From the IMG/VR virus record IMGVR_UViG_3300009156_000009: a stretch of DNA of 45,403 nt. One strand, written 5' to 3'. A program made the translations under genes and the position numbers. Under the pieces are notes generated by a model. That model was given only the letters and a program-made list of their open reading frames with translations, was not told the origin of the DNA and did not search any database. This DNA comes from a virus. Positions 25,692-30,114 of the stretch are shown one piece after another (position 1 is the stretch's first letter; each line of letters starts with the position of its first letter).

Positions 25692-26681
25692 ATGCGAGTT
25701 TTCGCACTCGCCACAGGCGCTCTCGCCTTCTCGCCTGTCTTCCATTTCGTCGCTCAGGCTGTCCAGCCTGGAGGTACTGGAGGGACAGGCCCTACGGGGC
25801 CTACAGGCCCTTCGGGGCCGACCGGAGCGGGTGCGACGGGGCCTACGGGAGCCACTGGCCCATCCGGTGCAACCGGCCCTGCCGGAACGGGCGCAACGGG
25901 AGTCACCGGAGCAACGGGAGGGACGGGATCTCAAGGGGCAACAGGCCCGACCGGTGTCACGGGAGCCACCGGAGTCACTGGTGCGGGGGCCACAGGGCCG
26001 ACTGGAGCTACGGGTTCCACCGGCCCGAGTGGAGCAACTGGGGCAACAGGAGCGACCGGAAGTGGAGCCACGGGTGCAACGGGGCCGACCGGCTCTGCGG
26101 GCGCGACTGGGCCAACCGGAGCGACGGGCGCTACTGGAGCTGGCGCGACCGGAGCGACAGGAGCCACCGGAGCTACGGGCACTGGCGCGACCGGTCCTAC
26201 GGGGGCCACCGGTTCCACGGGTGCAACGGGAGCAACCGGTTCGGGGAGTGGCAGCGGTGAGGCTCTTCAGCGTGCCGTCAGTCAGACCGGACACGGATTC
26301 GTCGTGGGTGACGTGGTGCGGCTCAACGGGAGCACTTGGCAGAAGGCTCAGGCAAACACCTCAGCCGATGCGGAGGCCATCGGGATTGTGGCTGCGGTGG
26401 CTGGTTCCAACGATTTCACGATCCACTTCGGCGGACGCATTACGGGTCTGTCCGGGCTCACCGCCGGCGCGGTCTACTTCCTGGACGACGACACCGCTGG
26501 CCTGCTCACCACCACCGAGCCTCCGGACGTTGGCGATGTGTCCAAGCCCTTGCTCGTTGCCGACTCCACCACTTCCGGCTACTTCTTCAACTGGCGCGGA
26601 GCGATCAACACGACCTCGAGCGGCGGGGGCGGAACAAGCGGCCCCGACTACGTGACGGCTTTCCTATTCGCAGGAGCGTGA
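25692..26681 (+). CDS. Collagen-like fibre protein 1 (329 aa): hydrophobic N-terminus, about 54 G-X-Y triplets (mostly G-X-Thr), and a globular C-terminal domain
   Basis: The ATG is preceded by GGGAGAG. Residues 27-189 are [15 protein letters not shown] triplets. The C-terminal domain ([18 protein letters not shown]...[14 protein letters not shown]) looks like a fibre-tip domain. Confidence 0.85.
25770..26258 (+). repeat. G-X-Y (collagen-like) triplet-repeat coding region of fibre protein 1
   Basis: It has 9-nt periodic GGN-NNN-ACN repeats. Both strands and several frames stay open here, producing shadow ORFs. Confidence 0.9.
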
Positions 26682-26682
26682 C

Positions 26683-27006
26683 ATGACGCAAACCATCATC
26701 TCCCCCCAGCAGCTCAATCCAAGCGCAGCCACGCTCACCGAGATCTACGACGTGCCCGATGGCGCGAGTTTCGTAGGGCGACTCAACATCTGCAACCGAA
26801 GCGCGACGGCTACCTCCTTCCGTGTCTCCATCGAGGTCAACAACGAGGCGACCGGGGACAAGCAGTATCTCGCCTACGACACTCCCATCGAGGGAGGACA
26901 GGTCATCTCCATCGACGCAATCACCATGACCGATGACGACCGACTCATGGTGTATGCGACCCTCGCCACCCTTAGCTTCTCGCTCATGGGAGTGACGAAT
27001 ACATGA
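26683..27006 (+). CDS. Small beta-rich protein (107 aa), copy B of the triplicated roughly 100-aa module
   Basis: The ATG is preceded by GCAGGAGCG. It shares its architecture with 31665..31979 and the C-terminus of 12013..13032 (..AAT...R.N..N.S...SF.VSI...). Confidence 0.6.
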   Translation: MTQTIISPQQLNPSAATLTEIYDVPDGASFVGRLNICNRSATATSFRVSIEVNNEATGDKQYLAYDTPIEGGQVISIDAITMTDDDRLMVYATLATLSFSLMGVTNT

Positions 27007-27569
27007 GAACCATCGCTCCCGTTGACATGGCTCGCCCGCGGCTTGCGCGCCAGGGACGCATCATCACCACAGCAGACGAGGAGTTCGGGTGTGCCTCTGT
27101 GATGTCAATGGGCGGGACTACGGTTTCCGGGTCGTGGCCGTCTGCCAATGATCCCTGCGCCGTCCCTTTCACCATCACCGAGGCGCTGGTGGTCACACAC
27201 CTCGGCTGGCGGAACGGGTCAGGAGCTGGATCGAACCACGACATCGGCATCTATGACGAAGCATGGAACCGTCTCGTCTCGGCGGGTTCCTCCGCAGCCG
27301 GTACGAGCTCGCTGTGGAACTTCGTCAACGTTACGGATACGCCGATTGCAGCCGGACGCTATTACCTCGTGAAGAACATCGACTCAACGACGGCCAACCG
27401 CGCGCGCTATTGGTCACACGCGGCGACGCTCGGATTTATGACCATGCTCGGGATGAAGGAGACAGCCACCGACTCCTTCCCCCTCCCCAACCCGCTCACG
27501 AACATGACCGATCCGATCACGCATACGCGCGTGCCCATCATCGCCCTGACAGTGAAGGCTCCGCTGTGA
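27003..27569 (+). CDS. Fibre-module protein (188 aa), paralog 1 of a tandem pair
   Basis: ATGA overlap with the upstream stop. It shares WPSAN, NHDIGIYD and AGRYYLV with the next gene. Confidence 0.6.
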   Translation: MRTIAPVDMARPRLARQGRIITTADEEFGCASVMSMGGTTVSGSWPSANDPCAVPFTITEALVVTHLGWRNGSGAGSNHDIGIYDEAWNRLVSAGSSAAGTSSLWNFVNVTDTPIAAGRYYLVKNIDSTTANRARYWSHAATLGFMTMLGMKETATDSFPLPNPLTNMTDPITHTRVPIIALTVKAPL

Positions 27570-28093
27570 GGGTCTCTACCTCTGCGATGTACATGATTCC
27601 TACGCCCTGGGTGTCATCGGCGTTCTACGCGGCGATGGCTGCGGCGGCAGGGCCGGCGGCGATCGTTCCGGCGGCGGCGGCATGGCCCTCGGCCAACCGT
27701 GCCATCTATATCCCCGTCTGGTTCCCCTTTTCGACTTTGATCGTGGACATGCGCGTGGGCTTCACTACCGCCGCAGGGAACTACGACATCGGCTTGTATG
27801 ACTCGAACTTCGGGCTCATCGAGGCGAAGGGGTCTGCTGCCGTTTCTAACGCCGCCCATATCTTCACGCTGACCAAGCCACAGCGTGTTCGGGCAGGTGC
27901 CATCTACTACGCCGCCCTCGTTCTCTCTTCGATCAGCGACTCCTGTTATCGCTCTGCGCCTTCCGGTGTGGCTGGAGTCTCTTCCAACTTGGCGCAGGAA
28001 GCGCTCGGATCTACGACCCTGCCATCGACAGCAACTCCGGCAGTGCAAAGCGATCCCTGTTACGTCCCTCTCTTCGCCTACGGGTTGCGATGA
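27566..28093 (+). CDS. Fibre-module protein (175 aa), paralog 2 of a tandem pair
   Basis: GTGA overlap start (the alternative is an ATG at 27587). Motifs are [13 protein letters not shown] and AGAIYYAAL. Confidence 0.55.
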
Positions 28094-30114
28094 GTGCCTT
28101 CGAGCTAGAACCTGGCGCAACTGGCCCGACCGGGGCAACCGGTGCAACCGGTCCCGGTGGTGGGGCTACCGGCCCTACTGGTGCGACCGGGGCCACTGGC
28201 TCGGCTGGGGTTACAGGCGCGACGGGCGCTACAGGAAGTGGAGCCACGGGTGCAACCGGCCCGACTGGTAGCACGGGGTCTACAGGCTCAACTGGCGCTA
28301 CGGGGGCGACTGGCTCCGGTGCGACTGGTGCCACGGGGCCAACCGGCTCCACCGGGCCAACAGGAGCTACCGGAGCTACAGGAGCCACGGGCTCGGGAAC
28401 CACAGGCGCAACGGGAGCTACGGGGCCAACTGGCGCAACGGGAGCTACAGGAACGACCGGAGAGGAAGGCCCGCCAGGGGACGATGGGCAACAGGGCGCG
28501 ACCGGACCGACTGGCGCTACCGGCTCGAGCGGAGCTACCGGGAGCACGGGAGCCACTGGTGCTACGGGAGCGACTGGCTCTGGGGCAACTGGTGCCACAG
28601 GCCCCACCGGAGCGACCGGCTCTACGGGTGCCACTGGCAGCACGGGAGCAACCGGACCCACAGGATCCACCGGGGCAACTGGAGTCACCGGAGCGACGGG
28701 ATCTACCGGAGCGACGGGGAGCACGGGCTCTACAGGAGCGACAGGCGCTACTGGAAGTGGAGCGACGGGCGCTACGGGGAGCACGGGGGGCACTGGTCCA
28801 ACTGGGGCCACCGGTAGCACGGGCGACGAAGGGCCTCCCGGCGGCGACGGGGATCAGGGGCCGACTGGTCCTACGGGCGCTACCGGAAGCACAGGCGCTA
28901 CCGGGGTAACGGGACCCACCGGCTCCACTGGGAGCACTGGATCTACGGGAGCTACCGGTCCTACCGGTGCGACAGGCTCCACAGGCGCAACTGGCAGCAC
29001 CGGCCCGACCGGAGCGACGGGAGCGACTGGTAGCGGAGCCACAGGCGCAACCGGGAGCACAGGGGCTACGGGACCGACCGGATCTACTGGCGCTACAGGC
29101 GCGACGGGTTCCGGTGCCACGGGAGCGACTGGACCTACGGGCGCAGAGGGCGACATCGGCCCGCCCGGACTCGATGGGAACGACGGTGCTACCGGCCCGA
29201 CCGGAGCTACAGGATCGGGCGCTACCGGACCCACCGGAGCAACGGGTTCGACCGGGGCAACTGGAACTACGGGGGCCACTGGCGCGACGGGATCGGGCGC
29301 TACCGGGGCGACAGGCGCTACTGGCGCTACGGGAGCTACCGGTGTCACGGGAGCGACCGGTGCTACGGGAGCTACGGGTTCGGGGGCAACCGGGGCGACA
29401 GGCGGGACGGGAGCAACAGGTCCCAGCGGTGCTACGGGCACGACCGGAGACGAAGGACCGCCTGGTGGAGATGGCGACCAGGGGCCGACCGGTCCCACCG
29501 GAGTCACGGGCTCCACCGGGGCGACGGGGCCAACCGGAGCAACCGGGGCTACCGGATCAGGAGCTACGGGAGCCACTGGTCCGACAGGGGCTACGGGTAC
29601 GAAGGTAGCCGGACAGATCTTCCTCTCGGCTGCCGGGATGTGGCCCTCCACGACCAACGGCGCAGCCACGAACGCGAAGGTGGAGTTCACGACCAACGAT
29701 CAGGATCTGTACGTCCTGGACTTCGCAGACGGGGCGACCAAGCTCTTCGCGCAGGGCACCATCGCGATGCCGAGTGACTGGGATGGAGGCACCATCAGCG
29801 CCACCTTCTACTGGACGGCGAACACGACCTCCACCAACAACCTGCTCTGGGGCTGCGCCGGCCGCTCGTATGGCAACTTCGAGACCATCGACCAGGCGTG
29901 GGGCACGGAGCAGACGGTACAGGACGCCCTGAACGGCACCGCCAACCAACTCGGGATCTCGGCGGCAACCTCTGCGATCACGCTCTCCGGTACTCCCGCC
30001 GCGGGAGAGCTCGTGCAGTTCCGAATCTCGAGGGATCCGACTTCCGGCTCTGACACGCTGGCAGCAACGGCCCGGCTTCTCGGCGTGATGATCGGCTACA
30101 CGAGGACAGCCTGA
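28090..30114 (+). CDS. Collagen-like fibre protein 2 (674 aa): an 8-aa N-terminus, about 165 G-X-Y triplets (mostly G-X-Thr), and a roughly 170-aa globular C-terminal domain
   Basis: ATGA overlap start. The triplet region runs from residues 9 to about 503. Four acidic GPP-containing knots interrupt it. The C-terminal domain begins [29 protein letters not shown]... Confidence 0.9.
28114..29598 (+). repeat. G-X-Y (collagen-like) triplet-repeat coding region of fibre protein 2
   Basis: About 1.5 kb of GGN-NNN-ACN periodicity. All alternative-frame and antisense ORFs here (PVAPV... and RARE... types) are shadows. Confidence 0.9.

Follow-up and report, generated by a model that had tools for sequence, protein, structure and literature searches.

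Two threonine-rich collagen-like proteins of an uncultivated phage as possible halves of one long fibre, with a neighboring glycosyltransferase as candidate modifying enzyme

What do two genes built largely of collagen-like repeats do in the late operon of a phage, and could the glycosyltransferase (GT) encoded next to them act on their products? The question is raised by the region 25692-30114 of the viral contig IMGVR_UViG_3300009156_000009, which was analyzed over its full length of 45,403 nt (hereafter the window). The first gene (25692..26681, + strand) encodes a protein of 329 residues, P1, proposed to be a proximal half-fibre, and the second (28090..30114, + strand) a protein of 674 residues, P2, proposed to be the distal half. 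Both are almost certainly real trimeric collagen-type proteins and belong, very probably, to a virion fibre. We give an even chance to the fuller proposal that they make up one long segmented trimeric collagen-like fibre whose threonines would be glycosylated by an adjacent GT of the GT2 family. The collagen genes with their domains, the fused homologues, and the type of the GT and its linkage to fibre genes are observed, whereas end-to-end assembly, the site of attachment to the virion, carbohydrate binding and glycosylation are steps that we infer. Phage fibres with collagen-like segments, the glycosylation of phage virions and the bacterial BclA3-SgtA pair are each already known; our literature searches returned no description of a collagen fibre combined with a protein GT in phages, and a preliminary description of this DNA, made from its letters, likewise knew of no phage system with a glycosylated collagen-fibre coat.

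P1 starts with a hydrophobic segment of 26 residues, after which come the collagen region (residues 27-185), a globular knob called P1C (about 187-310), a Gly/Ser linker and a short hydrophobic tail. In P2, 8 residues (MSAFELEP) precede the collagen region (residues 9-505), and a jelly-roll head called P2C (about 506-674) follows it. The Pfam Collagen family (PF01391, cut-off 27.2) matches P1 with 36.5 bits (E = 4e-9) and P2 with 183.1 bits (E = 7e-55). We counted 49 G-X-Y triplets in residues 27-185 of P1, plus 3 chance triplets near its C-terminus, and 158 in residues 9-505 of P2. The Y position is occupied by Thr in 36 of the 49 triplets of P1 (73%) and in 124 of the 158 of P2 (78%), an arrangement referred to below as the Thr ladder, so that both proteins have the GXT collagen-like region of BclA-type proteins. 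At the X position, Ala (22) and Pro (14) are found in P1, and Ala (69), Ser (36) and Pro (29) in P2. A single missing residue (GSG-ATG or GAG-ATG) interrupts the register at intervals of about 8 triplets, approximately 6 times in P1 and 12 times in P2. Pro stands at Y only 4 times in all, each time inside one of four acidic GPPG knots. These knots of P2 (about 28459-28497, 28822-28860, 29140-29187 and 29446-29484) are spaced by about 100-120 residues, have similar counterparts in relatives, and may act as hinges, bind ions or clamp the helix for stability. The preliminary description had both collagen-like open reading frames (ORFs) at their exact coordinates and was right about the predominance of Thr at Y, the hydrophobic start of P1, the 8 residues ahead of the P2 helix and the two C-terminal domains, which come from different families; its reading of trimeric collagen-type fibre proteins in the virion operon is supported by the Pfam matches and the operon position. 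Many triplets are present, as it had said, but its figures of about 54 and 165 were not reproduced.

Repeats of this kind could in principle be non-coding, or be read in the wrong frame, the open frames arising from the high GC content and repetitiveness of the DNA. The opposite strand is open across the repeats, as are several other frames, and the public JGI and ENA gene calls picked such frames, splitting both collagen genes into wrong-frame fragments. However, the G-X-Y frame alone runs on into two different conserved globular domains, for which 28 (P1C) and 248 (P2C) database homologues were found. The starts at 25692 and 28090 are each the first start codon after a stop, so that no upstream extension is possible; a ribosome-binding site (GGGAGAG) lies 5' of the P1 ATG, and the P2 start overlaps the stop of a 168-residue gene (ATGA), an arrangement of translational coupling. 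Moreover, the collagen DNA repeats are merely 63-80% alike, their third codon positions varying while the protein pattern is kept, and the region is identical across independent assemblies. The reading-frame, coupling, codon and assembly evidence refutes the artefact, to which we leave virtually no probability; the repeats themselves give rise to the ORFs on the opposite strand and in shifted frames. Since gene callers misread the collagen and assemblies often stop inside the repeats, the fibre family is represented in protein databases mostly by C-terminal stubs, and most P2C entries start at an internal Met (MWPSTTNG...). The GC content at third codon positions is 0.54-0.56 in the collagen DNA (25770-26246 and 28114-29604), where all four Gly, Ala and Thr codons are used almost evenly, compared with 0.76-0.85 in the globular domains of P1 and P2 and 0.85-0.89 in other genes. 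This usage may serve to avoid recombination or slippage at the repeats, or to spread the tRNA load.

The relation between the two proteins was approached through their relatives. Profile scans of IMG/VR gave 80 loci for P2C (designated by L numbers) and 226 homologues for P1C. In about 60 of the 80 P2C loci collagen is present upstream of the head, with up to 723 triplets in an ORF of 3193 residues. A clade of approximately 15 contigs has the capsid, tube and adaptor genes of the window, and in all of them the fibre gene occupies the same slot. Within this clade, L018 encodes a single fibre of 930 residues whose P2C head is 89% identical to that of P2, and whose N-terminus is 81% identical to that of P1 over 40 residues (the first 43 residues being compared). 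The single fibres of L021 and L024 consist of an N-terminus, collagen, an internal P1C (56-66% identity), a further collagen stretch and P2C (70-82% identity). A second split case is found in L070, with a P1C-ended fibre, a small protein, three glycine-rich proteins and a P2C fibre with a short N-terminus. In the P1C family at large, the domain is mostly internal and collagen comes after it. On this homology, P1 and P2 are probably the halves of a fibre that relatives encode as one polypeptide. Because fused homologues exist where the window genes are split, the two products would join end to end, and a split single fibre would account for the fact that P2 needs only 8 residues before its helix. 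Two separate fibres, as supposed in the preliminary description, are less likely than split halves in view of the single-fibre homologues L018, L021 and L024. The same holds for the signal peptide that it had proposed for P1: this segment, conserved at 81% in the L018 fibre that ends in the P2 head, is more likely an anchor, and it would serve the whole fibre since the same position is held by a 43-residue N-terminal domain in other members of the clade.

With textbook values of 0.286 nm per residue for a triple helix and 0.15 nm per tape-measure residue for a tail, the helices of P1 and P2 are calculated to be about 45 and 142 nm long and the whole fibre about 190 nm, a length comparable to that of the tail, for which the 991-residue tape measure predicts about 149 nm. 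Some observations speak against the joined fibre, or limit what can be drawn from it. In 7 relatives, the length of the collagen did not follow that of the tape measure (r ~0.34, hand calculation), and no argument for a fibre spanning the tail is therefore made. A fused homologue suggests physical association and does not prove it. Furthermore, L017 has a P1-type fibre without P2, so that P1 can apparently work alone.

Some side observations concern the relatives of these fibres. The fibres with a short N-terminus (28090-28113 in the window, L048 and L080) have a loose common N-terminal pattern (MSAFELEP, MSDFEIVH), which could be a docking or recognition peptide, and two of these three loci adjoin a gene for a GT2 with tetratricopeptide repeats (TPRs). 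Other fibres with a P2C head have a G-(T/S)-S collagen with Ser at Y and Thr at X (L056, 914-10495; L054; L064; L050), one of them being an ORF of 3193 residues and 723 triplets. In L005, a 165-residue protein with a HELGHGLG zinc-metallopeptidase motif and weak Astacin and M6 matches is encoded (10474-10971) 3' of a 1210-residue fibre gene.

The end domains give indications on the role of the fibre. The AlphaFold2 model of P2C (predicted local distance difference test score, pLDDT, 95.7) is a beta jelly roll, with template modeling (TM) scores of about 0.5 to lectins, carbohydrate-binding modules (CBMs), the EphA2 ligand-binding domain, MAM domains and the C-domain of a Klebsiella-phage tailspike, and of 0.9 to gp74 of EBPR siphovirus 2 and to an uncultured-phage protein. 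The TM score to a phage 'C1q domain' protein was just 0.37, the best matches being the lectins and CBMs; the comparison of P2C with PDB sequences gave no useful match. In tblastn searches, P2C was found at the end of proteins encoded in or near the tail gene blocks of Kintu (gp18), EBPR siphovirus 2 (gp74) and Tunturi_5, where the protein is annotated 'tail fiber protein'; these tail assignments are annotations. The distal domain of P2 is thereby homologous to annotated tail fibre domains, whereas its gene does not lie in the tail-tip block. From the modeled fold, we infer a lectin- or CBM-like head that would bind cell-surface carbohydrate. The P2C fold was also seen (BFVD) at the ends of 'collagen triple helix repeat' proteins of Catovirus and Klosneuvirus (TM ~0.7, 14-15% identity), and a collagen stalk bearing this head is therefore shared by phages and giant viruses. 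As for P1C, its sequence gave no useful match in phages or in the PDB. The PDB matches of its model (pLDDT 87.6) are all capsid decoration proteins and are weak (E >= 0.015, TM <= 0.49), and in some homologue the domain is fused to a K1-lyase C-terminal (tailspike) domain.

To what extent the Thr ladder could be a substrate depends on the enzyme encoded four genes 3' of P2 (31976..32806, + strand), a GT2 of 276 residues (Pfam Glycos_transf_2, E = 1e-13) of the GmaR/SunS/SgtA type. Its best match among solved structures is the GT domain of Listeria GmaR (E = 3.5e-13, residues 3-173, nearly the full domain), followed by SunS (E = 2.5e-4) and then by a generic GT (E = 5e-3). The homologue in L048 matches GmaR with E = 1.6e-15 and SunS with E = 5.5e-9, and the same outcome was obtained for the GT2-TPR protein of L017, to which the window enzyme is 32% identical (E = 6e-37). 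Full-length phage homologues have about 350-370 residues and a GT2+TPR architecture, sometimes with the GT2 fused to an FkbM methyltransferase; Pfam TPRs were detected in the homologues of L017, L024, L048, L080 and L087. GmaR, which has a GT domain followed by TPRs, transfers N-acetylglucosamine (GlcNAc) onto flagellin (PMC9638930). SgtA of C. difficile, a protein of 358 residues with a GT-A domain and four TPRs encoded beside bclA3, places beta-O-GlcNAc on Thr, and also on Ser, of GPT collagen-repeat peptides (PMC7157674). By homology, the fibre-linked GT2 is a putative protein O-glycosyltransferase of this kind.

The gene also travels with the fibre. GT2-TPR-type homologues adjoin fibre genes in at least 12 loci, and L017, which has another head-tail backbone, contains the same cassette (a P1-type fibre, genes of 107, 187 and 170 residues, and the GT2-TPR gene). 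The co-occurrence of GXT collagen and GT, a check suggested in the preliminary description, was examined on the pooled and dereplicated loci of the P2C and P1C scans: a GT2-TPR gene lies within 5 kb of 12 of 40 Thr-ladder fibres, compared with 2 of 98 fibres with other or no collagen (Fisher p = 5e-6, in a test that ignores shared ancestry). One of these two exceptions, L050, has the G-T/S-S collagen beside a 1258-residue GT1+FkbM+GT2 fusion protein. The linkage of fibre and GT put forward in the preliminary description is thus upheld, an adjacent GT2 of the GmaR/SunS group accompanying Thr-ladder fibre genes across unrelated phage backbones. Its claim of many GTs in this genome stands for three GT2 enzymes that are firm by Pfam, and less so for two more assigned by PHROG matches alone.

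Several observations weigh against glycosylation of the fibre. No GT2-TPR gene was found within 5 kb of 28 of the 40 Thr-ladder fibres (70%); as the statistic is not corrected for kinship either, the functional link is supported and not proved. The window GT2 is short (276 residues), and its C-terminal half aligns to the TPR region of the L017 protein without a Pfam TPR match of its own. In Gram-positive collagen-like proteins, Thr occupies 48% of Y positions and is common where no glycosylation is known, so that a GXT-rich collagen is the norm and the Thr ladder alone is not unusual. In addition, BclA produced recombinantly and without glycans still folds into a triple helix. Glycosylation of Thr by the adjacent GT, as predicted from these sequences, is in our estimate balanced, or leaning slightly toward being true.

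These proteins could instead be collagen-like tail or side fibres of an ordinary kind that carry no glycan, with the phage GTs acting on the C-terminal tails of capsid and tube proteins (as in Che8 and Corndog), on host cell-wall polymers or on DNA. Documented targets of actinophage-encoded GTs are the capsid and the tail tube and not fibres, according to the account of Freeman et al. 2023 given in PMC11600133 and PMC13313380. In the clade of the window, the tube-like protein and the capsid protein end in conserved tails containing Ser/Thr or Cys that could be the real substrates, a gene for a phrog_854-like 'glucosyltransferase' lies between those of the portal and the capsid in 13 relatives, and EPclA, a fibre of E. 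coli prophages, is not glycosylated; the Thr-ladder fibres that have no GT2-TPR gene nearby fit as well. What makes this alternative unlikely is the presence of GT2-TPR genes beside fibre genes on the unrelated backbones L017, L024, L048, L080 and L087, their near absence (2/98) at fibres with the same head or knob but without Thr-ladder collagen, and an architecture matching that of SgtA, whose substrate is precisely such a repeat. The tails in question were seen at the capsid C-terminus (24080-24128; L005-L081), where ...C(P/A)xGxFPPAGTARTC(E/D) is kept across the clade, and at that of the tube-like protein (25630-25671), with ...C....VT(S/P/A)(T/G/S)S across the clade and ...AACAATSVTSTS in the window. 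Their Cys, Ser and Thr residues could be cross-link or glycosylation sites, the tube tail being an alternative target of glycosylation.

The place of the fibre on the particle is a second matter. P1 could bind the capsid by its C-terminal domain, the stalks forming a coat on the head, as for SPP1 gp12, a 6.6 kDa collagen-like trimer of about 8 triplets on the capsid hexamers, or for phi29 gp8.5, a trimeric head fibre with a presumed role in adsorption. The genes are close to capsid genes, and the PDB matches of P1C are decoration or cement proteins, among them those of Borrelia phage BB1, HFTV1, mycobacteriophage Adjutor, Sf11, TW1, T1 and P21 (SHP), and the base of the phi29 head fibre. Nevertheless these matches are weak (E = 0.015-1, TM 0.38-0.49), the gene directly upstream of P1 encodes a tube-like and not a capsid protein, and P1C, which differs in this from SPP1 gp12 and phi29 gp8.5, is internal between collagens in L021 and L024, precedes collagen in most of its family and also occurs joined to the tailspike domain mentioned above; a domain that is internal or followed by collagen fits poorly with a capsid-binding terminal domain. 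Head fibres of this type are distinctly improbable, and nothing was found that shows the glycosylated fibre coat proposed in the preliminary description. Finally, the hydrophobic core and AXA motif at the start of P1 would be compatible with a protein secreted or exposed on the cell surface through a signal peptide, as a lysogenic-conversion or exclusion factor. Such a role is very hard to credit, given a single positive charge in the n-region, the tight packing of the gene in the late structural operon, the occurrence of the same segment at the head of the L018 single fibre, where other clade members carry a non-hydrophobic domain, and the fact that no integrase or other lysogeny gene was recognized among the window proteins scanned.

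In the model of one segmented, glycosylated fibre, the P1 N-terminus would anchor the fibre to the virion and be followed by a triple helix of about 45 nm and the P1C knob. P2 would dock on this knob by its 8-residue N-terminus, possibly aided by the three small proteins encoded between P1 and P2, and would add a triple helix of about 142 nm and then the jelly-roll head, the whole serving as a host-surface adhesin. Before or during trimerization, the GmaR/SgtA-like GT2 would put the first sugar on Thr at the Y position, with about 160 Thr sites per pair of P1 and P2 chains, and other phage GTs and a short-chain dehydrogenase/reductase (SDR) may lengthen the glycan or make it more diverse. With its sugars, the Pro-poor helix would be stabilized and hydrated, and protected against proteases or recognition. 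Attachment could be at the neck, the tail or the head: the neck is suggested by an N-terminal extension of the adaptor protein, a candidate docking site of the fibre, and the head by the weak matches of P1C to decoration proteins. That the window exemplifies a widespread undescribed class of appendages, giant 'beads-on-a-string' Thr-glycosylated collagen fibres which are here split, neck-anchored, about 190 nm long and reaching past the tail tip for the initial contact with a host, is a tentative idea that we rather doubt; such fibres would be the viral equivalent of the glycosylated nap of the exosporium.

The model has parallels in bacterial spore surfaces. As in the BclA3/SgtA system of C. 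difficile, a G-X-Thr collagen gene lies beside a GT-A+TPR enzyme, and the fibre-linked phage GTs agree with SgtA in size and in the order of their domains; this likeness to SgtA is drawn from a description of its size and architecture, the activity of the phage enzyme being putative. In contrast, BclA3 belongs to a bacterial spore surface and its repeats are GPT, whereas the phage proteins mix GAT, GST and GPT. BclA of B. anthracis likewise has a short N-terminal anchor, a variable GXT collagen stalk and a C-terminal beta jelly-roll head. There is however no sequence similarity, P2C is of the lectin/CBM type and not clearly C1q/TNF-like, and the phage fibre is split and segmented, with internal knobs and without an exosporium-targeting motif. 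The N-termini of P1 and P2 are, we presume, unrelated to the BclA anchor. The BclA stalk is O-glycosylated on Thr (Daubenspeck 2004, as cited elsewhere).

Comparisons can also be drawn among viruses. In the virion glycosylation of actinophages (Che8, Corndog, Myrna), as the accounts cited above present it, phage GTs, sometimes with a methyltransferase, modify virion proteins, and the capsid module of the window is distantly related to actinophage capsid modules; the substrates in those accounts are, unlike the one proposed here, capsid and tail tube subunits and not collagen-like fibres. EPclA of E. coli O157 prophages and the PHROG 'collagen-like minor tail' families are trimeric proposed adhesins with a collagen stalk between globular domains. 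The collagen of EPclA covers about 100 residues, is rich in Pro and charges and is unglycosylated, while that of the window fibre is 5-6 times longer, Pro-poor, Thr-laddered and GT-linked. The long tail fibre of T4 is made of a proximal half, gp34, and a distal half, gp36/gp37, joined at a knee, with small joint proteins encoded between them. The separate encoding of proximal and distal halves joined end to end is the likeness to the window fibre, although the T4 fibre is beta-structured with an unrelated fold and the analogy comes from the fused and split homologues alone. Mimivirus, Catovirus and Klosneuvirus encode collagen-like proteins together with their own glycosylation machinery, but these are eukaryotic viruses, their kinship is of fold only (14-15% identity), and Mimivirus glycosylates hydroxylysine and not Thr.

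If the model is true, phage virion glycosylation would extend from capsid and tube to host-recognition fibres, with a bearing on adsorption, environmental stability and evasion of antibodies or defence, and phage fibres would be tied evolutionarily to the BclA/SgtA systems of spore surfaces. A compact GT and a simple GXT repeat would constitute a new enzyme-substrate pair for glycosylated collagen-like materials, and a large family of fibre proteins would be largely hidden from databases. With both fused and split forms among the relatives, nature provides a test case for the end-to-end joining of collagen fibres.

The window represents approximately the entire genome of an uncultivated phage, contigs of 45.2-46.0 kb being present in several metagenomes; a near-identity DNA search of GenBank phages gave no close relative. 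The late operon runs from the large terminase through a sugar cluster, a peptidoglycan-binding-domain protein and a DUF1360 protein, both of which may have lysis functions, to the portal, the phrog_854-like protein, a capsid protein of 596 residues, a phrog_779 protein and the phrog_792 tube-like protein. After the fibre block (25692-32806) come the phrog_783 adaptor, chaperone-sized genes, the 991-residue tape measure and three small tail-tip proteins. The fibre genes are thus located between the tube-like and adaptor genes and upstream of the tape measure, as first described. The tube-like protein (25015..25671, + strand), labeled 'major tail protein' in phrog_792, is directly upstream of P1. 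The head-to-tail adaptor (32803..33921, + strand) has 372 residues, compared with 367-395 in the fibre-bearing clade and 207-286 in cultured relatives without fibres, owing to a clade-specific N-terminal extension of about 130-150 residues for which no family match was obtained. The genes 3' of the tape measure are small (159, 398 and 203 residues), and no further candidate receptor-binding protein was recognized among them.

For the capsid protein, the identity to 'major capsid hexamer proteins' of Arthrobacter, Gordonia, Microbacterium, Mycobacterium and Streptomyces phages does not exceed 31%. The window phage and these actinophages have in common the unusual gene order capsid, tube, adaptor, and in the actinophages the fibre slot is empty or filled by unrelated genes. 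A host in the phylum Actinomycetota is suggested by this distant capsid similarity and by 65% GC alone; a scan of GTDB genomes gave just 4 matches, in metagenome-assembled genomes of Chlorobiaceae, Solirubrobacterales, Anaerolineae and Chloroflexota.

The sugar cluster (13029..16677, + strand) encodes a PHROG-only GT (13029-13682), two GT2 enzymes (13932-14561 and 14968-15765, the latter having no PDB sequence match) and the SDR (15778-16677), which resembles dTDP-glucose-4,6-dehydratase and RmlD (sugar 4,6-dehydratase/epimerase-like). These are candidate glycan-building enzymes, and their sequences suggest that the phage produces or modifies a nucleotide sugar of its own. In a wider sense the cluster (10808-16677) fills the space between the terminase and the peptidoglycan-binding gene (16930-18402) and also contains a GHL15-like putative glycosyl hydrolase and an unassigned ORF of 339 residues. 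The phrog_854-like protein (21590..22222, + strand), located between portal and capsid and kept throughout the clade, has a homologue in Gordonia phage Sixama (gp92) annotated as glycosyltransferase; no Pfam or PDB match was found for it.

Six further genes, all on the + strand, complete the fibre block. The 107-residue protein (26683..27006) follows the P1C-ended fibre here and at the same place in L016 and L017, with a similar protein in L070; its PHROG matches to tail fibre N-termini are weak. The 188-residue accessory protein (27003..27569) is kept in the L017 cassette and in L023 and has 16 unannotated homologues and no Pfam match. Its paralogue (E = 8e-6) is the 168-residue accessory protein (27587..28093) whose stop overlaps the P2 start; a kinship of the latter to the gene upstream of P0010 in L009 was considered, and the two are not related. 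The start of the 90-residue protein (30114..30386), which has no family match, overlaps the P2 stop. It is followed by a beta-rich accessory protein of 422 residues (30386..31654), which in relatives is fused to a Laminin_G_3 lectin-like domain, as in the 564-residue protein of L005. A homologue of the 104-residue protein (31665..31979) lies directly upstream of the fibre gene in many relatives; a paralogy with the 107-residue protein, seen by eye, was dropped as BLASTP gave no alignment.

In the capsid protein (22338-24128), about 200 residues at the N-terminus form an acidic region resembling a scaffold. No prohead protease was recognized, and no family match was found for the 236-residue ORF (20877-21587) 3' of the portal gene. 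In the early region, on the minus strand, 715-1491 encodes a protein with a transglycosylase-like domain and 5980-6699 a protein with a DnaJ-type CXXCXGXG zinc-finger motif.

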